The notes beneath the pieces are model-generated. The model searched no databases. It was given only the letters and a program-made list of their open reading frames with translations, and was not told the DNA's origin. A stretch of 11,010 nucleotides of DNA from a virus (Duplodnaviria > Heunggongvirae > Uroviricota > Caudoviricetes), in the IMG/VR virus record IMGVR_UViG_2681813236_000014, positions 1-11,010 of that record; one strand, written 5' to 3'. Of the stretch, positions 1 to 11,010 are shown one piece after another (position 1 is the first letter of the stretch; every line of letters starts with the position of its first letter). Position numbers and translations under genes: made by a program.

Positions 1-37
1 GATAATAATTCTTAGTATTAATTCGGCAATCTGATTC

Positions 38-72
38 TACTCCCCCCCAGTACCTGATACTACCCCCCAGTA
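38..72. promoter_or_regulatory. Two RcnR operator sites in the rcnA-rcnR intergenic region (TACT-C7-AGTA at 38-52; TACT-A-C6-AGTA at 58-72)
   Basis: Seen directly: tactcccccccagta and tactaccccccagta. The reverse complement is the TACT-G6/7-AGTA motif known as the RcnR binding site; located immediately upstream of rcnR. Confidence 0.7.
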
Positions 73-120
73 GATTAATAGTGCTATGATTTTTCATATT
101 CTTGTTAACCAGGTGTTGCC

Positions 121-393
121 ATGTCTCATACAATCCGTGATAAACAGAAACTGAAAGCGCGTGCCAGTAAGATTCAGGGCCAGGTCGTGGCGCTCAAGAA
201 AATGCTCGACGAGCCGCACGAATGCGCTGCAGTTTTACAACAGATTGCTGCTATCCGTGGCGCGGTAAACGGTCTGATGCGGGAAGTGATTAAAGGTCAT
301 CTGACGGAACACATCGTTCACCAGGGGGATGAGCTAAAACGTGAAGAAGATCTGGATGTCGTTCTGAAGGTGCTGGATTCATATATCAAATAA
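121..393 (+). CDS. rcnR: RcnR, Ni/Co-responsive transcriptional repressor (RcnR/CsoR/FrmR family), 90 aa
   Basis: Translation [90 protein letters not shown] matches E. coli RcnR as I recall it; the operator motifs upstream are consistent. Confidence 0.92.
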
Positions 394-482
394 TTTATTA
401 ACGCGATTGTAAAACTGCCGTTTTTCCTCGTTTACAACGCGTGCGCTGGACATTACCATCCTCCTCTGCGATTTATCATCGC

Positions 483-534
483 AACCAAACGACTCGGGGT
501 GCCCTTCTGCGTGAAGGCTGAGAAATACCCGTAT
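483..534 (+). promoter_or_regulatory. 5' portion of the thiM TPP (THI-box) riboswitch, truncated by island insertion
   Basis: aaccaaacgactcggggtgcccttctgcgtgaaggctgagaaatacccgtat matches the start of the E. coli thiM leader/aptamer as recalled. The native continuation (CACCUGAUCUGGAUAAUGCCAGCG...) is absent; unrelated AT/GT-rich sequence follows from 535. Confidence 0.7.
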
Positions 535-535
535 T

Positions 536-722
536 TTCTCATTTAGTGTTTTTTGTGGTTCGGGGTTGCTTGTGGTTGTTTATGTATGTATTTGATAAAC
601 AATAAATTATCCTGTTTTCTTGTTTGTTGTTGTTCGTCGTTGTTCGTAGAGCTTCAACAAAATGTGTGGTCAGTTGTGTGGTCAGTTTTTTGAGGCTGGA
701 GGACTGAAAAGAGGATCTGATA
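536..722. repeat. att-proximal arm with short tandem direct repeats (TGTGTGGTCAGT x2 at 663-686; GTTGTTCGT x2 at ~628-646; TTGTGGTT x2 near 555-585)
   Basis: Seen directly. Lies between the insertion junction and the integrase start; this is the typical location of integrase arm-type or IHF sites and of the int promoter. Confidence 0.4.
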
Positions 723-1943
723 GTGGGAAAAGCACTAAACAAACTGAGCGATTCGACGTTAAAAAAATTGGCGGCTGTCCAGGCAGAAAAAGAGCGTTTT
801 TACTCCGACGGGGGCGGGCTGGAGATTAAACACTCAAAGGGCGGCAAATTAACCTGGTATTTCCGGTACCGAACGGGAGGCCGTGAGGTTGCCGCAGAGC
901 GGTTAAAGCTGGGGGCTTACCCTGAATTGTCGCTGAAAGCCGCAAGGGAAAAACGCACACTGTGCCGGGCATGGCTGGCTGAGGGTAAAAACCCCCGTTA
1001 TGAGTTGTGCGCCACAGTACAGGAAGCACTAAAACCCGTTACGGTGAAGGAAGCGATTAACTACTGGCTGGAGGAATACGCGAAGGATAACCGCAAAGAT
1101 TACATAAAGCTGGTGCAGCGTATGGATAAGCACATCATTTGCCATATTGGGGCAATTCCCCTTGATAAGTGTGATACAAGGCAGTGGATCGCATGTTTTG
1201 ACCGCGTACGAAAAAAAGCACCAGTAGCAGCGGGCCATGTCATGCAGACATGCAAACAGGCGCTAAAGTTTTGCCGCAGGCGGCGCTACGCGTTTAGCAA
1301 CGCCCTGGACGATTTGATCGTTACTGATGTGGGTAAGAGAGCAGAAATCCGCGAGAGAGTGCACAGCAACAGCGAACTAAAAGAAATTCTACGCGCTATT
1401 GATGGTGATGTGTTCGCTCCCTATTACAGTGCGTTAATGCGCTTGTTAATTGTGTTCGGGTGCAGAACGGCAGAGATCAGACTTTCAGAGATCAAAGAAT
1501 GGGACCTGAAAGAAATGTTGTGGACAGTGCCAAAAGAGCACAGCAAAACGAAGGTAACAATATTCCGACCTATTCCTGATGGTATTTTGCCGTTCATTCA
1601 GAAGCTGGTGGAGCAAAACGCACACACTGGGTTATTACTCGGCGAACTGAAAAAAGATACCACGGTGGCGCAATATGGACGAAATGCGCATAAGCGGCTT
1701 AAGCAGGAACACTGGACGCTGCATGATTTCCGACACACGTTTACAACTATGCTGAATGATTTAGGTGTCGATCCGCATATCGTGGAGCACATCACAGCGC
1801 ATCAGATGCCAGGTCAGCAAAAAACCTATAACCATTCACGCTATTTGCAGGCGAAACGGGACGCACTGAATCTATGGGTTGAGCGTCTTGATATGATTGC
1901 AGGATATAATGAAAATATTGTGATATTGAGAGGGATACAATGA
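723..1943 (+). CDS. int: Tyrosine recombinase, P4-type integrase (406 aa, GTG start)
   Basis: N-terminal arm-binding pattern (DGGGLEIKHSKGGKLTWYFRYR); catalytic-region motifs GCRTAEI, HDFRHT and a C-terminal Tyr (KTYNHS); RBS AAGAGGA 7 nt upstream; adjacent to the insertion junction. Confidence 0.9.
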   Translation: MGKALNKLSDSTLKKLAAVQAEKERFYSDGGGLEIKHSKGGKLTWYFRYRTGGREVAAERLKLGAYPELSLKAAREKRTLCRAWLAEGKNPRYELCATVQEALKPVTVKEAINYWLEEYAKDNRKDYIKLVQRMDKHIICHIGAIPLDKCDTRQWIACFDRVRKKAPVAAGHVMQTCKQALKFCRRRRYAFSNALDDLIVTDVGKRAEIRERVHSNSELKEILRAIDGDVFAPYYSALMRLLIVFGCRTAEIRLSEIKEWDLKEMLWTVPKEHSKTKVTIFRPIPDGILPFIQKLVEQNAHTGLLLGELKKDTTVAQYGRNAHKRLKQEHWTLHDFRHTFTTMLNDLGVDPHIVEHITAHQMPGQQKTYNHSRYLQAKRDALNLWVERLDMIAGYNENIVILRGIQ

Positions 1944-2794
1944 CGAAAAAAGTAAATAGTAAAAAAGATTTACCAAAGTCATTTGATTTAGGCAAATATG
2001 ATTGCCTAGAAAACTTGTCGGATAAAGATCTATTTCGCCAATTATATTGGCGACAAGATGATTTAACAATGAAACATTCTGAGATGCCTGAATATGGATT
2101 TATGTTTGGTGCTGAATACCCGTTGCATAATAATTACGGGGATCCATTTGGAGAGCTGAAAGAAGACGATTGGTTTTGTGATAAACAAAAAGAATATGAC
2201 CATAAAGTGCAACCGAAGTTAATTGAGCTAAGTTATGATGATGGAATTAAACCTGTAACAAGATTTGATATATCAATGATTAATAAACTGACTGCGGAAA
2301 GAGGATATTGGAAGGATAAACCAATCATCATAGATAATGAGATGGTTGGAAGTTTAATATCAGAAGATAATGGGATGTTTTGGGCTGTGATGCGTGAACC
2401 AGTGAATCTCCTTTCTGATACATTAGATAATATGCTTGTTTCTGTTGACTTACTACATAACAGAGATGATGAGTTGATTGAAGCGTTTACAAAACTATTA
2501 CCAAAATGGCGTAGTGAACTTTCAATTGTTGAGCCAGACAAACCAATTGCAGGAAGTTGGGAGAGCATACGACGTAAAATTATTGATTATAAGATAATCC
2601 CATTAATTGACTTATTATCTTGGGAGTTGTCTACAGATAGAAAAATTTCATTAGGGGTGCTTGCCGTATCTTTGTATCCTGATGGTGAAAAGGACACCTT
2701 TGCTATTGCTCAGACTGTAAAACCCTTCTTAGAAAAAATAATGCGCAGCGATTCTTTAGAAAAAATAAGAAAAATTTTATCTAATGAAAATTAA
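1940..2794 (+). CDS. Hypothetical protein, AT-rich cargo gene (284 aa), function unknown
   Basis: Long ORF with start overlapping the int stop (ATGA), RBS AGAGGGA. Markedly lower GC than flanking int and alpA. No motif I can assign. Confidence 0.7.
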   Translation: MTKKVNSKKDLPKSFDLGKYDCLENLSDKDLFRQLYWRQDDLTMKHSEMPEYGFMFGAEYPLHNNYGDPFGELKEDDWFCDKQKEYDHKVQPKLIELSYDDGIKPVTRFDISMINKLTAERGYWKDKPIIIDNEMVGSLISEDNGMFWAVMREPVNLLSDTLDNMLVSVDLLHNRDDELIEAFTKLLPKWRSELSIVEPDKPIAGSWESIRRKIIDYKIIPLIDLLSWELSTDRKISLGVLAVSLYPDGEKDTFAIAQTVKPFLEKIMRSDSLEKIRKILSNEN

Positions 2795-2897
2795 TCATGG
2801 AGAACGATAAATTAGAATAAAGTTTATTTTTCCAATATTGCACCAACTGCTATGGTAAATAAGATGCCCTTGTTCGGTTACGTTCGAGGGTGTTTTT

Positions 2898-3122
2898 ATG
2901 AATCAAAATACACAATTTCAATCACTAACAGATCGCGTAATTCGTGAGGATGAATGTCGTAAGTTAACAGGCGTCAGCCGTACTACACGCTACGAACTGG
3001 AGAAGAAAGGGGGCTTTCCGTCTCGCCGTAATCTTGGGGGGCGTTCTGTAGGCTGGTTGCTTTCCGAAGTTATGGACTGGGTGCAAAGCCGTGACCGCGT
3101 TAATTCAGGTAAGGCAGCGTAA
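2898..3122 (+). CDS. alpA: AlpA-family transcriptional regulator / excisionase-like (74 aa)
   Basis: HTH-containing small protein (LTGVSRTTRYELEKKGGFPSRRNLGGRSVGWLLSEVMDWVQS) typical of AlpA family; RBS GAGGG upstream; standard position after int in P4-like and PICI elements. Confidence 0.8.
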   Translation: MNQNTQFQSLTDRVIREDECRKLTGVSRTTRYELEKKGGFPSRRNLGGRSVGWLLSEVMDWVQSRDRVNSGKAA

Positions 3123-3140
3123 AGGGGAGCATATGACATA

Positions 3141-3168
3141 TAAAACAAAGGCGACCGGGGGCGGTCGC
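3141..3168 (-). terminator. Putative intrinsic terminator for the leftward regulator operon
   Basis: Perfect 8-bp GC-rich stem GGCGACCG/CGGTCGCC (3149-3156, 3161-3168) with 4-nt loop. On the minus strand it is followed by a U-rich run (complement of aaaacaaa, 3141-3148); no T-run on the plus strand. Confidence 0.5.
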
Positions 3169-3236
3169 CAATGGATACACACTAAACTTGAACGCATCGC
3201 CAACAATGCCACATTTGCGGCTGGTGGGCAATGTGA

Positions 3237-3416
3237 TCAGTCAGATTTGGTTCGTTCCAAGGTTTGCAACGAGAGCTTTTTCCTGTGCTCTTTAAGGAAT
3301 TTCTCAAGAGCAAACGAACAAGGTGCGAATCTTTCTGATTCATGTTCATGCGCTATATTTTTGCGTCGTCTCTTACGAGTTGGTGATGGTGTTTTGGTTG
3401 ATTCTGTGTCGCTCAT
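3237..3416 (-). CDS. Possible small basic protein (59 aa), below the ORF-track cutoff
   Basis: Manual translation of the minus strand gives MSDTESTKTPSPTRKRRRKNIAHEHESERFAPCSFALEKFLKEHRKKLSLQTLERTKSD with an AGGA RBS 6 nt upstream; sits between the RHH gene and the minus-strand terminator. Hand-derived, so coordinates could be off by a few nt. Confidence 0.3.
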   Translation of the reverse strand: MSDTESTKTPSPTRKRRRKNIAHEHESERFAPCSFALEKFLKEHRKKLSLQTLERTKSD

Positions 3417-3473
3417 GGTGCTGTCCTGTAAAGCAATGCGCCTGCGTTCCTCAAACTATGGCGCTGATAGTGG

Positions 3474-3779
3474 CTATTCCTGCTCTTTGACCTTGCGTCG
3501 CTGGAGTTCTTCACGCGCGACGGTGACGAGTTGCCCGATCTCCTCGGCGGCTTTGACTCCGATTTTTTCCACCTGCGCTAGGGCATCGAGCGAAGAAACC
3601 AGGAGGTTTTCTCCGCTTCCTTCTGCCTGGCGGCGGGCGATTTCACCGCGCATGGCGGTTACTATGAATCCGGCGTTGCTTTCACCGTCCAGTTTTACGG
3701 ATTCCATGCCTTCAATAACATCATGCGGGATCCGAGCTGTCAGTGATTGTGATTTTGCGTTTTTTGAACCTGTAGCCAT
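3474..3779 (-). CDS. Putative ribbon-helix-helix (CopG/Arc-like) DNA-binding regulator, 101 aa; candidate island repressor
   Basis: Strong RBS GAGAGGA 6 nt before the ATG at 3779 (the ORF-track start at 3794 is a TTG without RBS). N-terminus SLTARIPHDVIEGMESV fits a beta-strand/helix RHH pattern. Divergent from the pri operon across an operator-rich region. Confidence 0.6.
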   Translation of the reverse strand: MATGSKNAKSQSLTARIPHDVIEGMESVKLDGESNAGFIVTAMRGEIARRQAEGSGENLLVSSLDALAQVEKIGVKAAEEIGQLVTVAREELQRRKVKEQE

Positions 3780-3800
3780 CTGTAATCCTCTCAATGAAAG

Positions 3801-3877
3801 TGTAAGACAATATACACATAAAAAGTCTTACATAAAAGCATTGACATGTAAGCCACCTATAAATAAAGTTACTTACA
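3801..3877. promoter_or_regulatory. Divergent promoter/operator region: two TGTAAG-N19/20-CTTACA inverted-repeat operators plus rightward promoter (-35 TTGACA 3841-3846, -10 TAAAGT 3864-3869)
   Basis: Seen directly: TGTAAG at 3801-3806 and 3847-3852; CTTACA at 3827-3832 and 3872-3877. The second pair overlaps the promoter elements. Confidence 0.5.
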
Positions 3878-3975
3878 CCTTGTTAATGCAAGGTGCAGAA
3901 ACGACGAAACCCCGCACTGTAGGAGCAGTAACGGGGCTTCTAACCACCAACGATAGCAAGATTATCGAGGCAGCT

Positions 3976-4179
3976 ATGAGAAATCATACCATACACCCGC
4001 AAGGGCGGGACTCGTACAACCTGAATAAATACATCTGGCGTTTTATCGCCCTGAGCACCGCACAACCGCGCGTGATTCACATCGTGGCCACCAGCGAACA
4101 GGAAGCACGCCAGCAATCCCCGGCTGGCTGCGTGATGGTATTCGCCGCCCGTATTCGTCAGGGGGTGTGCCATGCCTGA
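3976..4179 (+). CDS. Small protein (67 aa), first gene of the rightward operon; possibly Icd-like cell-division-inhibitor family (weak recollection)
   Basis: First in-frame ATG after the promoter, RBS GAGG; MRNHTIHPQGRDSYNLNKYIWRFIALSTAQPRVIHIVATSEQEARQQSPAGCVMVFAARIRQGVCHA. The rest of the 362-aa ORF-track frame upstream is antisense to the RHH gene and not credible. Confidence 0.5.
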   Translation: MRNHTIHPQGRDSYNLNKYIWRFIALSTAQPRVIHIVATSEQEARQQSPAGCVMVFAARIRQGVCHA

Positions 4180-4492
4180 TATGTCAAATTACCAGTACCT
4201 GATTAATCCGCATTTTAACTGTGAGCATGATATTGCTAAAAAGATTTATTCCGCTGCGGATGGGGCTACTGACAATATATCAATGGCTGTTGCGTCAATT
4301 GGTAGCCTGATGTGGCATGCGTCAGAAAATGAGGACTATGACGAAAAGGCCATGCGCATTGATATGGGGAATATCGGTTTGTTACTGGCAATGCTTGGAC
4401 ATTTTGATATTTCGTTACGGTGCACCATTGAAAATGCCACAGATGCATTAAATGCTATAAAGAAAGCGAATACTGATTCAAATCGGGGATAA
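4172..4492 (+). CDS. Hypothetical protein (106 aa)
   Basis: Start overlaps the upstream stop (ATGCCTGA), RBS AGGGGG; in operon with the primase; no recognisable motif. Confidence 0.55.
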   Translation: MPDMSNYQYLINPHFNCEHDIAKKIYSAADGATDNISMAVASIGSLMWHASENEDYDEKAMRIDMGNIGLLLAMLGHFDISLRCTIENATDALNAIKKANTDSNRG

Positions 4493-4498
4493 ATAATC

Positions 4499-4798
4499 AT
4501 GAGAACGTATTTATCTGGCTTGACTGCCAGCGGTTATGCACACCCCCAAATTATCCCCGGCGCTATTTATCTGGATAAGAACGGTAACAGAGTAACGGTA
4601 AAAGAACTGATGTTTGACCGTGTGTATTTTATCCGTGATGGCTATTCATTTCTTAGTTCGCTGAACGTGGAGATCTTTATTAGCAGATTCAGGCGGGAAA
4701 TCCCGCTTTCCAGAAATAACCATGTGTCATGTATGGATGTTGATAAAAAACTACAGGAACTAAAAAACATGATTGCCGCGTGGAGAGAGCAGAAATGA
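4499..4798 (+). CDS. Hypothetical protein (99 aa)
   Basis: Stop overlaps the primase ATG at 4795 (ATGA), suggesting translational coupling; no recognisable motif. Confidence 0.55.
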   Translation: MRTYLSGLTASGYAHPQIIPGAIYLDKNGNRVTVKELMFDRVYFIRDGYSFLSSLNVEIFISRFRREIPLSRNNHVSCMDVDKKLQELKNMIAAWREQK

Positions 4799-6612
4799 AA
4801 AAAGCGCCAAATTTAAAACACCAGCCGCGTGACAAAATGACGGAAGTCATCATTTTTGCGGGTAGTGATGCGTGGGCACATGCGAAACAGTGGCAGGAAC
4901 AGGACGGGCGACTGGCTGGCGATAACGTGCCACCTGTCTGGCTTGGAGAGCAACAACTTGCCGAACTGGACAACCTGCAAATCGTACCGGACGGACGCTA
5001 TCGCGTGCGTCTCTATCAGGCGGGGTTATTGCGGCCGGGGCTTGTTAATACCATCGGGCAGAAACTGGCAGTGGCAGGTGTCAGGGATGCTGATTATTAC
5101 CCTGAAGGAATGCACAGCCAGAAACGGGAGAACTGGCGCGAATATCTGGAACGTGAACGGGCAGAGCAGGCGGAAAAGAAAAAGGTAGTTGAACTGCCTG
5201 TAAAGAAAAAAGAGCGGGTAAAAGACGATAACGCGTCATCACTGGCGCTTAACCAGATGGGAGCAAGTCAACGCGGCGAAGTTCTCCTGGCACATTATGG
5301 CGGTGAACTGGCGATTCATGCTGACTCTGACACTGTTCACCATTACAACGGCGTTGTATGGGAGCCAGTACAGGATAAAGAATTACAGCGAGCTATGGCA
5401 CAGATTTTCATTGATGCGGAGATCAGCTATTCGCAGAACGCCATTAAATCGGCGGTCGATACCATGAAGTTAAGTTTGCCTGTAATGGGGAATACAGCCC
5501 GTAACCTGATTGGATTCAGTAACGGGGTATTTGATACCAGAACAGGTAATTTTCGGGAGCATAACAAAAACGACTGGTTGTTAATTGCCAGTGAATTACC
5601 TTTCAGCCCACCAGCAGAGGGGGAAACGCTGGCAACACATGCGCCGAATTTCTGGAAGTGGTTACGCCGTTCGGTGGCTGAGAATGACCGCAAGGCGGAT
5701 CGCGTACTGGCTGCATTATTCATGGTGCTGGCGAACCGGTACGACTGGCAGTTATTCATTGAGGTAACAGGTCCAGGGGGAAGTGGTAAAAGCGTGATGG
5801 CGGAGATTTGCACCATGCTGGCGGGTAAGGCCAACACAGTATCGGCAAGCATGAAGGCGCTGGAAGATGCAAGGGAACGCGCGTTAGTGGTTGGCTTTTC
5901 GCTGATTATCATGCCGGATATGACCCGCTACGCTGGTGATGGGGCAGGGATTAAGGCTATTACAGGCGGTGACAAGGTGGCAATTGACCCGAAACACAAA
6001 GCCCCCTACTCAACGCGTATTCCGGCAGTAGTGCTGGCGGTTAACAATAACGCCATGTCATTCAGTGACCGCAGCGGGGGGATCTCACGTCGTCGGGTGA
6101 TATTCAATTTTTCGGAAGTTGTACCGGAGAACGAACGTGATCCAATGCTGGCGGAAAAAATAGAAGGTGAGCTGGCGGTAGTGATTCGCCATCTGCTTAC
6201 ACGGTTTGCTGACCAGGACGAAGCCAGACGCCTGTTATATGAGCAGCAGAAATCTGAAGAAGCACTGGCGATAAAGCGAGAGGGGGATTCGCTGGTGGAC
6301 TTCTGCGGCTATCTCATGGCGTCGGTAATGTGTGATGGCCTGTTAGTGGGTAATGCTGAAATTGTGCCATTCAGCCCACGCAGGTATCTCTATCATGCCT
6401 ATCTGGCTTATATGAGGGCACATGGGTTTGGTAAACCTGTAACACTGACGCGCTTCGGTAAAGATATGCCGGGGGCAATGGCGGAATATGGCAGGGAGTA
6501 TATGAAACGGAAAACGAAGCACGGTTTGCGTTCAAACGTGACACTGACGGAGGAATCAGAAGACTGGATGCCATCATGTGTATCGGTCACTAATGACGAT
6601 AGCAAAAATTAA
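4795..6612 (+). CDS. P4-family primase/helicase (replication initiator, pri-rep), ~605 aa
   Basis: Walker A GPGGSGKS (5769-5792) in the C-terminal helicase-like domain; large N-terminal domain; iteron origin immediately downstream. Start chosen at the ATG at 4795 (RBS GGAGAG, ATGA overlap) rather than the GTG at 4780. Confidence 0.88.
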   Translation: MKKAPNLKHQPRDKMTEVIIFAGSDAWAHAKQWQEQDGRLAGDNVPPVWLGEQQLAELDNLQIVPDGRYRVRLYQAGLLRPGLVNTIGQKLAVAGVRDADYYPEGMHSQKRENWREYLERERAEQAEKKKVVELPVKKKERVKDDNASSLALNQMGASQRGEVLLAHYGGELAIHADSDTVHHYNGVVWEPVQDKELQRAMAQIFIDAEISYSQNAIKSAVDTMKLSLPVMGNTARNLIGFSNGVFDTRTGNFREHNKNDWLLIASELPFSPPAEGETLATHAPNFWKWLRRSVAENDRKADRVLAALFMVLANRYDWQLFIEVTGPGGSGKSVMAEICTMLAGKANTVSASMKALEDARERALVVGFSLIIMPDMTRYAGDGAGIKAITGGDKVAIDPKHKAPYSTRIPAVVLAVNNNAMSFSDRSGGISRRRVIFNFSEVVPENERDPMLAEKIEGELAVVIRHLLTRFADQDEARRLLYEQQKSEEALAIKREGDSLVDFCGYLMASVMCDGLLVGNAEIVPFSPRRYLYHAYLAYMRAHGFGKPVTLTRFGKDMPGAMAEYGREYMKRKTKHGLRSNVTLTEESEDWMPSCVSVTNDDSKN

Positions 6613-6620
6613 ACTTATGG

Positions 6621-6850
6621 AATAACTGTTCACCACTGTTCACCCCGTCATAAATGTCTTTTATATCATTATATTATAGGGTGAACAGTTATTTATGAAC
6701 TGTTCACCAAACTATTCACTGTTCACCTTTTTGATTGTTTATTGAGCTGCAAGGGTGAACAGTGGTGAACAGTTGGTGAATAGTTTTTGTGAAACTGTTC
6801 ACCCCTTAACATTATGAATTGAAAGAGAAAATAGCAAAAGGTGAACACGT
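6621..6850. repeat. Iteron cluster / putative origin of replication
   Basis: About 10 copies of the 10-mer ACTGTTCACC in both orientations: direct at 6625, 6635, 6699, 6718, 6794; inverted GGTGAACAGT at 6680, 6754, 6764, plus degenerate copies at 6775 and 6840. An AT-rich stretch lies between them (6645-6679). Confidence 0.75.
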
Positions 6851-6955
6851 GAAGGGTTAAAATACAAAAATTTTATTACAGCATGGAATATTAAGTTTTA
6901 GCCGACAGGTAGTTAGCCATAAGAGGATATTTGTCGCTTAGTATTACGTACATAA

Positions 6956-6980
6956 CAGCAAACACTTTTCTGGTTTGCTG
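6956..6980 (-). terminator. Possible terminator hairpin downstream of the HEPN-like gene
   Basis: 8-bp stem CAGCAAAC/GTTTGCTG with 9-nt loop; flanking U-run on the minus strand is weak. Confidence 0.3.
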
Positions 6981-7003
6981 GATTAATAGATAAGCGCTAT
7001 AAG

Positions 7004-7717
7004 TTAGTTAGTTTTGAAAAATTTATTGAATAACTCTAAGCTTTCAGGATGTATATATTGAGTAGGGTAACTGATACGTTGTGAGCGTCCAATTTTTATT
7101 GTGTTTTTTTTCGTCTTCCCAAAAAATAGATTCTTCCATGTTAAAATGTTTCCGTGATTATATTTATTGTCTTTTAATCGCTTTTCCAAATAACCATCTG
7201 TGATTTTATATTTATGTGGCGGTACATTCCTTGAGTGCTCAATTTTCCGTAATTCTACTTCTAGCATATCTATTAGCTCACCTTTAGGGGTTTTGAGTTG
7301 ATAATTTAGTAAGCGGCAGTATCTGCGTAATTCCCATACAGTTCTATCTAATGTAATAATTTCAAACCCATTAGTATACATGACTTTTTGGAAGTATCTA
7401 TTTGGTCCTTGGTCATTTAGATACTCTATGAAATATATGCTTTTATCACTCAGATCTAGTTTAATATATGGAATATCATTAATTTTTTTAATTCCTGCAA
7501 CAAGATCATGTCCAATATTTTTAACAGGGATTCTATTAAAAATAAGAATGCATTTTATATATTTTTCAATTGCTTGTTGAGACATCCATAAAAATTGGAA
7601 AGGAAGATTGTTTTTAAAGCAAATACGAGCAGTTAGATAATCTTGATCAGCCATGTCTCTGAAAGATCTTTTAGCCGCATTATTCAGAAAAATTTTTTGA
7701 GTATCAGTAAGTTCCAT
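7004..7717 (-). CDS. AT-rich cargo protein with HEPN-like N-terminal domain (237 aa); candidate RNase-type defense/abortive-infection effector
   Basis: RBS AGGAAG; N-terminal helices with HEPN-like pattern (AAKRSFRDMADQDYLTARI...QQAIEKYIKCIL...NIGHDLVAGIKKI); roughly 30% GC by eye versus ~50% in flanks; opposite strand to surrounding island genes. Confidence 0.7.
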   Translation of the reverse strand: MELTDTQKIFLNNAAKRSFRDMADQDYLTARICFKNNLPFQFLWMSQQAIEKYIKCILIFNRIPVKNIGHDLVAGIKKINDIPYIKLDLSDKSIYFIEYLNDQGPNRYFQKVMYTNGFEIITLDRTVWELRRYCRLLNYQLKTPKGELIDMLEVELRKIEHSRNVPPHKYKITDGYLEKRLKDNKYNHGNILTWKNLFFGKTKKNTIKIGRSQRISYPTQYIHPESLELFNKFFKTN

Positions 7718-7863
7718 TCTCTTCCTGTGTCAGTGGTTGCAAGTGATTAGAAGATACAAGACATGATAAAGATTATAAATCGATTTTTATGGTAAAAATA
7801 TGTTTATTTACCACTTTTGTAGATCGATACTATGTATAGTTTAGTCAGTCAGAGGAAGTTGTT

Positions 7864-8073
7864 GTGAGTTGTATTAATGACCTGAACACAGGCGATATCA
7901 GAGGCGGTTCCGTTCATCTGGATGCGCAGACCGTTATGCGCCTTAAGCAGTACAGGATCGACCATATAAATCATCATCCTGACCAACCATTACCAGGTGT
8001 GGCGCAGATTGTCAGGCATGCCGTAAACGCCTGGCTTAATCAGAGTGGTTTTGCATCGGAGAGTGAGCAATGA
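7864..8073 (+). CDS. Hypothetical small protein (69 aa, GTG start) preceding the capsid gene
   Basis: RBS AGAGGAAG 5 nt before the GTG; stop overlaps the next ATG (ATGA); function not assignable. Confidence 0.5.
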   Translation: MSCINDLNTGDIRGGSVHLDAQTVMRLKQYRIDHINHHPDQPLPGVAQIVRHAVNAWLNQSGFASESEQ

Positions 8074-9983
8074 ATCACTGGTACACCATTAAGGCGGCGG
8101 ATGTTCGCGGAGCGGCGGATATATCTATCTATGAGGAGATTGGCGGCTTCGGTGTTACTGCAAAGCAGTTCGCGGAAGACCTGAAAGCCCTTGGCGATGT
8201 TTCACATATCAATCTGAGGATCCATTCACCAGGTGGTGATGTGTTTGAAGGCATCGCCATCTATAACCTGCTACGGAATCATCCGGCAGACATTACGGTT
8301 TATATCGATGGTGTTGCGGCTTCAATGGCTTCGGTTGTCGCAATGGCTGGCGATCGTGTTGTTATGCCGGAGAACGCCATGATGATGATCCATAAGCCGT
8401 GGGGTATCTCTGGCGGAAATGCTGGCGATATGCGTGATTATGCTGATTTGCTGGATAAGGTGGAAACCGTGTTAATCCCTGCTTATGCCAGAAAAACGGG
8501 CAAATCAGCACAGGAAATTACCGCCATGCTGGAGGATGAAACCTGGATGGATGGGAAAGAATGCCTTAAGCACGGTTTTGCTGATGAATTGTTGCCATCC
8601 GTCAGAGCAATGGCGCGAATTGAATCGAAACGCACAGGAGATTTTTTACATATGCCGGAAACCATTAAAGGAATGATTACACCGCCACAGGGAGCGGCAA
8701 ATATTGCTGGTAATGAACAGAAGCGCATCAATGGAATAAGTGAAGTGTTTAGCTTGTTCGGCAGTCGTTACGACGGGATCAAAATGGCGTGTCTGGAAGA
8801 TGCATCATGTACACCGGAAATGGCCCGTGAAAAGCTGTTGAACGAGCTGGGGCGCGAGTCCACGCCATCCAATAAAAATACCTCGCCTCATATCTATGCC
8901 GGAAACGGAAACATAACAGGTGATGCAATTCGTCAGGGGCTTTATTCCCGTCTTGGGTATGAACGCCCTGAACGAGGCAACCCTTACGCGATGATGAGCC
9001 TTTTTGAAATGGCCCAGGCATCACTGGTTGATCGTGGTATCACTGTGAGCGGTTTTATTAATCGCTCGCAGGTTGTTAATGCGGCTTTTACACACAGCAG
9101 CAGCGATTTTTCTCATATTCTGGCTGGTGGCGCTGAGAAATCAGTACTGAAAGGCTGGCAGGACAGCGGCGAAACGTTCCAGAAATGGACGCGTACCGGT
9201 TCGCTTTCAAACTTTCATGAAGCAAAGCGCGTTGGTCTGAATGGTTTTTCAAAGCTGGATAAAGTACCGGAAGGCGCGGAATATAAATACATCACCACTA
9301 GCGATAAAGGTGTACCTATTGCGCTGGCCACGTACGGGAATATTTTTTCCGTTACCCGTCAGGCCATTATCAACGATGACCTGACCCAGTTAACTACAAT
9401 CCCCATGGCGATGGGACGCGCAGCTGCCAGAACAGTTGGCAATCTGGTTTATCTCCTGTTAACCAGCAACGGCAAGTTTACGGATGGTAAAGCGTTATTC
9501 CATGCCGATCATAAAAATCTTATTGCGAAGGATATGGACATGGAGGGGCTTAACGAAGCCCGTAAGCTGATGCGCCTCCAGGAAGACGCTAACGGCGATT
9601 CGCTGAATATTACCCCCGCATTTGTCCTGGTCCCCGCCGCGCTGGAGTCTGCCGCACATCGCGCCATTCTGTCATCGTCATCACTCTTTCCGGTTGATGG
9701 CGTGGGCACTATCAATCAGAACCCCGGCATCATTAACGTGGTGAAAGATATGGCGGAGGTAATCGTTGAGCCACGTCTTGATAAAGCCAATAACAAGGAG
9801 TGGTATGTGGCAGCGGCGAAGGGTATGGACACGATAGAGGTCGCTTATCTTGATGGTATTGATACGCCATATCTTGAGGAGCAGGAGGGCTTTACTGTTG
9901 ATGGCGTCGCCTGGAAGGTGCGCATAGATGCAGGTGTCGCGGCCCTCGACTATCGCGGATTACTGAAATCGAGTGGAGCATGA
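8070..9983 (+). CDS. Prohead protease (ClpP/S14-like) fused to major capsid protein (637 aa)
   Basis: N-terminus has ClpP-like motifs (IHSPGGDV, GVAASMASVVAMAGD, MMIHKPWG). C-terminal ~400 aa resemble phage major head proteins (DGKALFHADHKN recalls Mu gpT-like DGKPFFAADHP). Strong RBS; intrinsic terminator immediately downstream. Confidence 0.85.
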   Translation: MNHWYTIKAADVRGAADISIYEEIGGFGVTAKQFAEDLKALGDVSHINLRIHSPGGDVFEGIAIYNLLRNHPADITVYIDGVAASMASVVAMAGDRVVMPENAMMMIHKPWGISGGNAGDMRDYADLLDKVETVLIPAYARKTGKSAQEITAMLEDETWMDGKECLKHGFADELLPSVRAMARIESKRTGDFLHMPETIKGMITPPQGAANIAGNEQKRINGISEVFSLFGSRYDGIKMACLEDASCTPEMAREKLLNELGRESTPSNKNTSPHIYAGNGNITGDAIRQGLYSRLGYERPERGNPYAMMSLFEMAQASLVDRGITVSGFINRSQVVNAAFTHSSSDFSHILAGGAEKSVLKGWQDSGETFQKWTRTGSLSNFHEAKRVGLNGFSKLDKVPEGAEYKYITTSDKGVPIALATYGNIFSVTRQAIINDDLTQLTTIPMAMGRAAARTVGNLVYLLLTSNGKFTDGKALFHADHKNLIAKDMDMEGLNEARKLMRLQEDANGDSLNITPAFVLVPAALESAAHRAILSSSSLFPVDGVGTINQNPGIINVVKDMAEVIVEPRLDKANNKEWYVAAAKGMDTIEVAYLDGIDTPYLEEQEGFTVDGVAWKVRIDAGVAALDYRGLLKSSGA

Positions 9984-9989
9984 CAACAA

Positions 9990-10013
9990 GGGCGGCGATA
10001 GCCGCCTTTTTTT
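9990..10013 (+). terminator. Rho-independent terminator after the capsid gene
   Basis: Stem GGCGGC/GCCGCC (9991-9996, 10001-10006), loop GATA, followed by T7 (10007-10013). Confidence 0.7.
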
Positions 10014-10061
10014 ACGGGTCCTCCCGGTGGGGTGGTCTGCCACGGGGCGGGAGCGGCGCGG
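10014..10061. other. Lambda-like cos site (cosQ/cosN-homologous segment); candidate 12-nt cohesive end GGGCGGGAGCGG at 10045-10056
   Basis: ACGGGTCCTCCCGGTG...ACGGGGCGGGAGCGGCGCGG aligns with the recalled lambda junction ACGGGTCCTTTCCGGTGATCCGACAGGTTACG|GGGCGGCGACCT|CGCGGG; the terS start lies ~196 bp downstream, as Nu1 does in lambda. Confidence 0.6.
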
Positions 10062-10240
10062 AAAAAGGCTAGTTTTTGCATTTTCATTCGTCATCATCAT
10101 CTTCATATTGTATTGAATTTTAAGCATTTTTATTTTTGGTATGTTAATTTTACTTGTTTTATGCTCAACATATAGCGCATTTTTTGACCTCTTCTGAAAG
10201 TTGTTCGCAAGATGCATGTTTAAAACATTCTGGAGCGGGT

Positions 10241-10726
10241 ATGGATCGAGAACTGAAAAATCTGATGCTGAACATTAATCAACTGGCGGCGATAGCGGGA
10301 ATATGTCGTCAGACTGCGGCGGCAAGGCTGAAAAACATCCAGCCAGCCGGAGGGCATGACAAGCTGAAACTCTATCGGGTGACTGACATTCTGACCTGTT
10401 TTCTTGATCTTCCCGTTCCGGCATCACTGGAAGAAATGGAGCCACATGACCGTAAGGCCTGGTATCAGTCCGAACGTGAACGCCTCAAGTTCGAACAGGA
10501 AACGGCGCAACTCATACCCGCCGATGATGTGCGAAAAGAGATGGCTATATGGGGGGAAATCGTAAGCGAGGAACTGGCAAAACTCCCCAATATTCTGGCA
10601 CGTGATGCCGGGCTTAAACCGATGGCAGTAAACAGAGTGCAGTCAATTATTGACGATTTGTGTAATCAGATTATCAGCCGGATGGTAAAAAATGACGTAG
10701 TGAATGAGGTCGCAAAACAGGCATGA
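10241..10726 (+). CDS. Small terminase subunit, Nu1-like (161 aa)
   Basis: RBS GGAG 7 nt before the ATG at 10241 (the ORF-track start at 10154 lies inside the cos region and lacks an RBS). N-terminal HTH (LNINQLAAIAGICRQTAAARLKN) and overall layout resemble lambda Nu1; immediately downstream of cos. Confidence 0.72.
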   Translation: MDRELKNLMLNINQLAAIAGICRQTAAARLKNIQPAGGHDKLKLYRVTDILTCFLDLPVPASLEEMEPHDRKAWYQSERERLKFEQETAQLIPADDVRKEMAIWGEIVSEELAKLPNILARDAGLKPMAVNRVQSIIDDLCNQIISRMVKNDVVNEVAKQA

Positions 10727-11010
10727 TAATGACCGAATCTGAAATACTGCGATTAATCCGCTGTGCTGGTGGAATCAGCCAGTTGGCTGACGAACAGGCC
10801 GCGCAGCCGGATACAGTCACCGCTGAAAATTACGCGCGTGTGGTGGCTGAGGTGATGCGCCGTGACGGTATTGAGCTTAACGGCGTGGATATGCGCAACA
10901 TACGAACCAGAGTTCTTGAGTTGCTGGCATACCGTCGCCGTTCTCAACAACGGAGGGAGAGCGCGAAAAATACTTACCAGTGGAGGAAGCCGGAGCACTT
11001 ACGGCGGTAA
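10723..11010 (+). CDS. Hypothetical protein (95 aa) downstream of terS
   Basis: Start overlaps the terS stop (ATGA); stop at the window end; no recognisable motif. Confidence 0.45.
   Translation: MIMTESEILRLIRCAGGISQLADEQAAQPDTVTAENYARVVAEVMRRDGIELNGVDMRNIRTRVLELLAYRRRSQQRRESAKNTYQWRKPEHLRR

Follow-up and report, generated by a model that had tools for sequence, protein, structure and literature searches.

Gene content and coding status of the locus

The DNA analyzed here (hereafter the window) is an 11,010-nucleotide (nt) stretch, positions 1 to 11,010 of the IMG/VR virus record IMGVR_UViG_2681813236_000014. It is a phage satellite of the Gram-negative phage-inducible chromosomal island (PICI) type, ~10.8 kb long, with a replication module of the P4-alpha type. 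We focused on two small open reading frames (ORFs), ORF1 and ORF2, located between an Icd-like gene and the replicase gene. A 99.9% identical island (L001), flanked by rcnR and thiM, is found in Escherichia coli Ecol_224, and the Prokaryotic Genome Annotation Pipeline (PGAP) called the same four genes there with unchanged boundaries. The two ORFs of 106 and 99 amino acids (aa) described in the original prediction, which had been made from the sequence alone, were thus borne out both by the sequence and by PGAP in L001. The four genes are:

3976-4179, + strand: small Icd-like protein of 67 aa, at the head of the operon (NCBIfam NF033153 phage_ICD_like, E=5e-20; PGAP agrees in L001)
4172-4492, + strand: ORF1, 106 aa, acidic helical hairpin (ATG start; phrog_15327)
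4499-4798, + strand: ORF2, 99 aa, basic DUF4222/RgdR-family protein (ATG start; Pfam PF13973)
4795-6612, + strand: replicase, annotated "DNA primase family" (Pfam D5_N, DUF5906, Pox_D5)

The original prediction had linked all of these genes through overlapping stop and start codons, which holds for two of the three junctions. The Icd-like TGA (4177-4179) lies 8 nt into ORF1, whose ATG is at 4172, and the ORF2 TGA (4796-4798) shares an ATGA with the replicase ATG (4795), i.e., a 4-nt overlap. ORF1 and ORF2, however, do not overlap, as 6 nt separate the ORF1 TAA (4490-4492) from the ORF2 start at 4499. Every start is preceded by a Shine-Dalgarno-like G-rich run located within the preceding gene, for ORF2 a GGGGA run within the 3′ end of ORF1. 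The same geometry was observed in divergent islands carrying other small genes and replicases, namely an 8-nt overlap with the Icd-like gene, a 3-6 nt spacer before the DUF4222 gene, and a 4-nt DUF4222/replicase overlap. Both ORFs displayed low ratios of non-synonymous to synonymous substitution rates (dN/dS; 0.19-0.21 for ORF1 and 0.15-0.31 for ORF2), and remote homologues with 26-41% identity occupy the same genomic slot. Since the geometry recurs in divergent islands, dN/dS is low, and remote homologues share the slot, these junctions are not due to chance. Together with the PGAP calls, the homologues with conserved motifs, and the confident cores of the AlphaFold2 models, the dN/dS values establish that ORF1 and ORF2 are genuine protein-coding genes under purifying selection, within the early/replication operon of the island.

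ORF2 as a divergent DUF4222/RgdR-family protein

Although the original prediction had reported no recognizable domain in either protein, ORF2 matched Pfam PF13973 (DUF4222) over residues 17-67 with 60.2 bits (cut-off 27; E=1.4e-16), compared to 82 bits for RgdR itself. In the literature, DUF4222 is tied to RgdR (ECs1581), encoded by the E. coli O157:H7 prophage Sp7/OI-51, an element later recognized as the capsid-forming PICI (cf-PICI) EcCIEDL933. The 99-aa protein RgdR activates LEE1, in the enterocyte effacement locus (LEE), as well as type III secretion. It represses motility, binds DNA non-specifically, and is required for full type III secretion and sheep colonization, and the orthologue C1493 from uropathogenic E. 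coli acts in the same way (PMC3378721). ORF2 thus belongs to a family with a characterized member, and of the two proteins only ORF1 remains uncharacterized as the original prediction had it.

ORF2 and RgdR are both basic and 99 aa long, and align end to end (residues 1-99 on 1-99) by BLASTP with 29% identity and E=7e-12. They share an SGLTASG N-terminal peptide, an R-[DE]-G-Y core, and a C-terminal helix, and the family alignment contained 18 invariant columns among 23 sequences. Their genomic slot is also the same: in the O157 cf-PICI, as in the window, the DUF4222 gene is the last one before the replicase gene and overlaps it by ATGA. In Sakai Sp7, ECs1581 directly precedes the replicase gene ECs1582 with the same 4-nt overlap. 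The two proteins differ in charge (+4.7 for ORF2, +11.6 for RgdR), and residues 20-22 of ORF2 are PGA where RgdR has RGD, the tripeptide behind its name, of which residue 20 matters for activity; because of this P20-G21-A22 replacement, ORF2 is a DUF4222 member but not an "RGD" RgdR allele. Their neighbors differ as well, the upstream gene being ECs1580-like for rgdR and ORF1 here, while the replicase is of the DUF927 type there and of the P4-alpha type here. By profile match and alignment, ORF2 is thus a new addition to the known DUF4222/RgdR family, divergent and without RGD. Host gene regulation (LEE1, motility) and DNA binding are properties of RgdR, which ORF2 may share by family likeness.

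The AlphaFold2 model of ORF2, a protein with an isoelectric point (pI) of 9.6, has a core with a predicted local distance difference test (pLDDT) score of ~90. It forms a four-stranded SH3/KOW-like barrel (residues 20-66) and a C-terminal helix (78-98), with an N-terminus that is disordered in the model yet bears the invariant SGLTASG peptide. The best Foldseek matches were Spt5 KOW domains (E=0.02), followed by other small barrels (0.02-0.1), with no match at E≤1e-3. The predicted barrel superposes on the Spt5 KOW domain at ~2.1 Å over 55 residues, with no sequence relationship. As E values are 0.02-0.1 and small barrels are generic, we take this match to indicate a fold class only. Sequence searches of PDB, with single sequences as well as profiles, returned nothing for ORF1 or ORF2, and a 26-column hhalign match between DUF4222 and P4 ORF151 (9.7% probability) was not used. 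Neither ORF1 nor ORF2 was matched by tblastn in 50,697 phage genomes, which fits satellite-specific alleles.

DUF4222 genes are found next to diverse replication initiators

In the sampled E. coli genomes, the DUF4222 gene was always annotated beside a replicase gene wherever the match extended that far. The neighboring replicases were of several types, i.e., "DNA primase family", DUF927, DUF5906, "helicase RepA family", and AAA ATPase, and in each E. coli island examined in detail, among them islands with P4-alpha-like, DUF927, DUF5906, and RepA/AAA_25 replicases, the DUF4222/replicase overlap was 4 nt. A separate scan of genome contigs for DUF4222 by peptide patterns yielded 2 loci, the patterns being too strict.

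DUF4222 domains were also detected in phages, and these ORFs were reached by the RgdR query only, which matched 43 temperate phages by tblastn. In two Klebsiella phages, the match is located between a cII-like gene and the replication-gene region, and in an Stx2a phage, it is two genes upstream of the initiator. SfIV, vB_EcoS-716R3, and the K-12 element e14 contain an unannotated DUF4222 ORF of 59-73 aa (Pfam E=8e-19) that is read in another frame within the 3′ half of ymfM (annotated "cell division inhibitor YmfM") and ends 11 nt within a lambda-O-like initiator gene:

L024:3002-3181: hidden DUF4222 ORF (E. coli K-12 e14)
L022:3438-3659: hidden DUF4222 ORF (SfIV)
L023:3480-3659: hidden DUF4222 ORF (vB_EcoS-716R3)

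Between e14 and 716R3, the same DNA is 86% identical when read in the DUF4222 frame and 48% in the ymfM frame, which indicates that selection acts on the DUF4222 frame. Like ORF2, these hidden ORFs are located directly upstream of an initiator gene and overlap it. They differ from ORF2 in consisting of the barrel core only, without N-terminal peptide or C-terminal helix, in their out-of-frame overlap with an annotated gene, and in the lambda-O-like winged-helix type of the initiator.

ORF1 belongs to a rare family of helical hairpins

ORF1 matched phrog_15327, a family without assigned function, over its entire length (residues 1-106 of 106; E=5.4e-71). No match was obtained in Pfam, NCBIfam, or PADLOC, so that for ORF1 the reported absence of recognizable domains stands. 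When 1.84 billion representative proteins were searched exhaustively with HMMER, 16 matches were obtained. Three of these candidates, P0058 (TPR-like repeats), P0060, and P0063, were rejected as homologues, being repeat-amplified chance matches of large repeat proteins. P0059 and P0064-P0066 are genuine remote homologues with 26-41% identity and have in common an IGxLM..A..N..Y motif at the hairpin turn. All four are encoded by int-AlpA islands, in a run of small overlapping ORFs before a replicase gene (AAA_25 or DUF927). One of these islands has the ORF1-like gene behind an Icd-like gene, the two overlapping by 8 nt, with a ClpP/capsid fusion encoded downstream. The metagenomic island L009 encodes a 41% identical ORF1 homologue along with the same kind of protease/capsid fusion.

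The ORF1 model (AlphaFold2, pLDDT 80) is a long antiparallel helical hairpin formed by helices 19-51 and 58-105, and the protein is acidic (pI 4.8). Foldseek searches of PDB and BFVD returned generic helical hairpins, all with E>0.4 and none significant. Structure prediction and remote-homology search, proposed at the outset as checks, thus yielded a barrel and the relation to RgdR for ORF2, and no informative structure match for ORF1. Two specific relationships were considered and rejected. A WXG100/EsxB-like hairpin had Foldseek E>1, and the ORF1 turn is ENEDYD with no WXG. For the P4 epsilon/Derepression family (PF25738) and Ash (PF10554), we obtained no Pfam hit at E≤0.1 and nothing by BLASTP, and hhalign against epsilon gave a probability of 0.1%.

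The slot of ORF1, from the Icd-like gene to the DUF4222 gene, is variable, and in other E. coli islands it contains an acidic helical ECs1580-like protein. A relationship between the ORF1 and ECs1580-like families was rejected as well (hhalign probability 0.2%). Overall, ORF1 is a small acidic helical hairpin of a rare, catalogued family that is found only in the small-ORF array before satellite replicases.

ORF1 and ORF2 form a low-GC cassette

Among 5426 complete E. coli genomes, ORF1 was detected in 474 and the ORF2 allele in 471, while the RgdR clade was detected in 1260. The G+C (GC) content of ORF1 and ORF2 is 40-42%, compared to 57% and 52% for the flanking genes. In E. coli, ORF1 and the ORF2 allele are thus inherited ~1:1, as a low-GC two-gene cassette. 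The cassette was found before different replicase engines. Conversely, the window and the island L020 encode replicase engines that are 99% identical along with DUF4222 proteins that are only 35% identical, and their upstream ORFs belong to different families, with 29% identity in a forced global alignment. In E. coli O157:H7 F3113, the complete Icd-like/ORF1/ORF2/replicase block (L019:7079-9715) is 95% identical to the window and is part of a cf-PICI (HK97-type capsid, protease, portal) at the pepT/roxA-phoQ site, which indicates that the block moves between satellite types and integration sites.

The replicase and its iteron origin

Residues 145-595 of the replicase are 51% identical to residues 320-771 of P4 alpha by BLASTP, i.e., the helicase and origin-binding part. 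Since the alignment is restricted to this part, the replicase is without the primase part of P4 alpha. Residues 1-140 (nt 4795-5214) had no Pfam match and represent a separate N-terminal domain. This domain (~125-140 aa) is found with 41-75% identity across P4-alpha-like, DUF927, and RepA/AAA_25 engines and, being common to three engine types, behaves like an exchangeable module. A field of short repeats lies close behind the replicase stop:

6615-6850, both orientations: origin-like iteron field of TGTTCACC, nine exact copies

The whole window contains 10 copies of this octamer, compared to 0.36 expected, and P4 has the identical octamer as its type-1 ori/crr repeat. Based on this excess and on the identity with the P4 repeat, 6615-6850 is likely the origin of the island.

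A putative replication cofactor linked to initiators

Taken together, these observations suggest that ORF2 may be an initiator-linked replication cofactor, a reading to which we assign roughly even odds (a probability of about 0.5). An initiator-linked role is proposed because DUF4222 accompanies five or more unrelated initiator types. The original prediction had suggested replication accessory factors, and for ORF2 this receives support from gene context, i.e., guilt by association, as DUF4222 is almost always directly upstream of an initiator. Translational coupling would lead ORF2 to be made in a fixed proportion with the replicase, and ORF2 could then be a cofactor or regulator that binds DNA or the initiator and acts at the initiator or the origin. 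What RgdR does to LEE and motility would in this case be a side effect of a small basic DNA-binding protein rather than its native role.

The nearest functional analogue of ORF2 would be P4 Cnr (ORF106, DUF5375). P4 cnr controls copy number, and Cnr acts on P4 alpha. Like ORF2, Cnr is a small protein encoded directly upstream of the replicase, here alpha, which includes the 51% identical part, and P4 carries the same TGTTCACC iterons. Unlike ORF2, which overlaps the replicase gene, cnr is separated from alpha by a 14-nt gap with no overlap. No profile or BLASTP match was detected between ORF1 or ORF2 and P4 Cnr (PF17345), while P4 ORF106 obtained 209 bits for DUF5375.

For ORF1, the most likely activity would be binding of a protein partner via the conserved hairpin tip, IGSLMWHASENxxY, which is the weakest step of the proposed mechanism. 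Candidate partners are ORF2 (as an acidic/basic cognate pair, pI 4.8 vs 9.6), the replicase, or a helper or host protein.

Several observations weigh against a role of ORF2 as a replication cofactor. The link of ORF2 to replication is drawn from gene order alone, and the sole experimental data on the DUF4222 family are transcriptional effects on host genes (PMC3378721). Outside Escherichia, the satellites L009, L014, L017, and L018 have ORF1 homologues and no DUF4222 gene, and two of them (L014 and L018) share the replicase N-terminal domain. As these satellites lack DUF4222 despite similar replicases, DUF4222 is not generally required. In a co-evolution test, divergence of DUF4222 was also only weakly related to that of the replicase N-terminal domain, which gave no support for a specific interaction; between the window and Sakai, the latter is 75% identical and DUF4222 32%, which argues against tight co-evolution of the two. 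In addition, the fold matches of ORF2 are weak (best Foldseek E=0.02) and small beta-barrels generic, neither sequence nor structure gave an informative match for ORF1, and the 1:1 linkage of ORF1 and ORF2 could merely reflect adjacency. It is because of the DUF4222-less satellites, the untracked divergence, and the data being limited to host expression that we put the cofactor reading at roughly even odds.

A broader version of the same idea, which we consider rather unlikely as a whole, would treat DUF4222 as a general, hitherto unrecognized class of small beta-barrel cofactors co-translated with initiators, both in lambdoid phages and with several satellite replicases. This version jointly includes three further proposals: that virulence regulation by RgdR would be secondary; that the filamentation attributed to "YmfM/SfiC" of e14 may be a secondary effect of DUF4222; and that ORF1 would be the cognate acidic partner of its DUF4222 allele. 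The second of these is based on the cloned ymfM fragment, which holds most of the hidden and better-conserved ORF. The ymfM clone with which filamentation was shown (bioRxiv 10.1101/2020.11.19.390815) would include most of this ORF.

Alternative roles of ORF1 and ORF2

ORF2 could instead regulate the transcription of host genes (for type III secretion, motility, or surface properties) as an accessory factor that benefits the bacterium, in which case its place before the replicase would be incidental. This would be in line with the activities of RgdR, which activates LEE1, promotes type III secretion and sheep colonization, and represses motility, as well as with those of C1493 (PMC3378721), and Fillol-Salom 2018 (PMC6092414) places rgdR among PICI accessory/virulence genes. 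We nevertheless consider it unlikely. Essentially all E. coli PICIs have a DUF4222 gene, those of commensals and LEE-negative strains included, which is core-like rather than typical of cargo; the gene is always coupled to an initiator, whereas accessory genes occupy hotspots elsewhere; and the domain precedes initiators in lambdoid phages too. Regarding ORF2 itself, the protein is without the RGD motif and only 29% identical to RgdR, of which a natural R20C variant is inactive on type III secretion, and RgdR DNA binding is non-specific (PMC3378721).

Interference of ORF1 and/or ORF2 with helper reproduction, or a function in host takeover or anti-defense, appears quite improbable. Small interference proteins are common in satellites, the small-ORF array is mosaic with a GC content unlike its flanks, and neither protein was matched by tblastn in the phage genomes searched, all of which would be consistent with such a function. 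The ORF2 family, however, is conserved and linked to initiators rather than to packaging genes, and evident interference/packaging genes (the protease/capsid fusion and TerS) are located downstream. Helper interference had been the second function suggested in the original prediction, and found no support here: neither protein had a match in PADLOC or any similarity to known interference proteins, including P4 epsilon/Ash, Sid, and Psu.

It is likewise quite improbable that ORF1 is a helper-derepression or anti-repressor protein, i.e., an analogue of P4 epsilon coupled to the Icd-like ORF that induces or manipulates a helper prophage, although its position invites the comparison. Like epsilon (PF25738), which inactivates the P2 repressor (PMC8628076), ORF1 follows an Icd-like ORF with an 8-nt overlap, as epsilon does the historical "cI" ORF of P4, the C-terminal part of which resembles Icd-like proteins, by eye only. 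The two proteins are also of similar size (95 vs 106 aa), the slot varies among islands as helper-specific factors would, and a small, acidic, helical protein fits a protein-binding inhibitor. Yet epsilon is basic (pI 9.3 vs 4.8), and ORF1 has no sequence, profile, or detectable structural similarity to it; neither the Derepression family nor Ash resembles ORF1 in sequence or profile, and among the top 50 viral-structure matches of ORF1 none was significant or named a derepression protein. Moreover, the ORF1-homologue islands L014, L017, and L018 have separate AntA, Bro-N, or Ash-family genes, and Gram-negative PICIs are induced by the helper via alpA, not vice versa (PMC6092414). Finally, a search for a C4/CI/isrK antisense-RNA immunity element like those of P4 and P1 found none in the window, while the P4 control was detected with 74.9 bits for C4.

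That ORF1 and ORF2 would be chance frames or decayed remnants with no product is effectively refuted: both are short and ORF1 has few relatives (16 matches in 1.84 billion representative proteins), but dN/dS is well under 1, a separate Shine-Dalgarno-like run accompanies each start, the synteny is shared by homologues with as little as 26% identity, the Pfam match of ORF2 is strong, and the folds are confident.

If ORF2 were indeed an initiator-linked cofactor, rgdR, usually listed as PICI "virulence cargo", would be a core part of the satellite/phage replication module. The interpretation of RgdR effects on type III secretion in enterohaemorrhagic E. coli would change accordingly, and the protein would provide a handle on satellite control of the replication burst. 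The two genes are otherwise an ordinary component of a known element, and the useful step lies in the re-interpretation of rgdR as a core, initiator-coupled gene. Beyond this, ORF1 and ORF2 are now a defined two-gene cassette, annotation can be improved in ~470 (this allele) to >1,700 (all alleles sampled) E. coli genomes, and the DUF4222 ORF hidden in e14 and related phages is a by-product of this annotation.

Island setting and other features

Gram-negative PICIs are defined by int, alpA, and pri genes in a single orientation, with an iteron-type origin located downstream of pri, and by a size of 10-20 kb (PMC10111431, PMC6092414). The island has the int/alpA/pri order, iterons, and a size in this range, and is called a Gram-negative PICI-type satellite because this gene order and the iterons are hallmarks of the class (PMC6092414, PMC10111431). 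Helper-dependent induction, packaging, and transfer are predicted from this class. The remaining features of the window are:

723-1943, + strand: tyrosine integrase (ORF listing and family scans)
1940-2794, + strand: DUF6387 gene, 284 aa (ORF listing, family scan)
2898-3122, + strand: AlpA (ORF listing, family scan)
3474-3794, - strand: YlcI/YnfO-family small protein, divergent from the operon (NCBIfam NF041551, E=6e-20)
3841-3869, + strand: promoter-like site TTGACA-17-TAAAGT (consensus scan, 10/12 matches)
3872-3975, + strand: structured 5′ leader of the Icd-like operon (three hairpins, -32.3 kcal/mol, z=-3.25)
7004-7717, - strand: HEPN-domain ORF, 237 aa (weak Pfam match, E=1.6e-4)
8070-9983, + strand: ClpP-protease/major-capsid fusion, 637 aa (family scans)
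10154-10726, + strand: DUF1441/TerS-like gene (family scans)

The site at 3841-3869 is a putative promoter that, judging from its sequence, may serve the Icd-like/ORF1/ORF2/replicase operon. The leader at 3872-3975 matched no Rfam family. The YlcI/YnfO gene keeps its position in L001, L004-L006, and L019-L021, and its product is a candidate island regulator. A packaging module spans 8070-11010 and comprises the ClpP-like prohead protease/capsid fusion, the DUF1441/TerS-like gene, and a phrog_1561 gene.

Two other genes have a distinctly low GC content. The DUF6387 gene overlaps the integrase stop by 4 nt and has a GC content of 33.5%, far under that of the island remainder, and may therefore be a further accessory gene. 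The HEPN-domain ORF has a GC content of 29.8% and no PADLOC match; L001 lacks it and carries a hypothetical gene of 174 nt in the same region. This ORF is probably a variable accessory or defense-hotspot gene between the origin and the capsid gene.

In E. coli CB6837 (L020) and ABW_A19 (L021), related satellites interrupt the major capsid gene of a prophage and have partial capsid genes on either side, a helper-embedded configuration that was known already (Mageeney et al. 2023, PMC10111431). Both bring their own capsid and decoration genes, along with a TIR-domain gene in L021 and a DUF2971 gene in L020.

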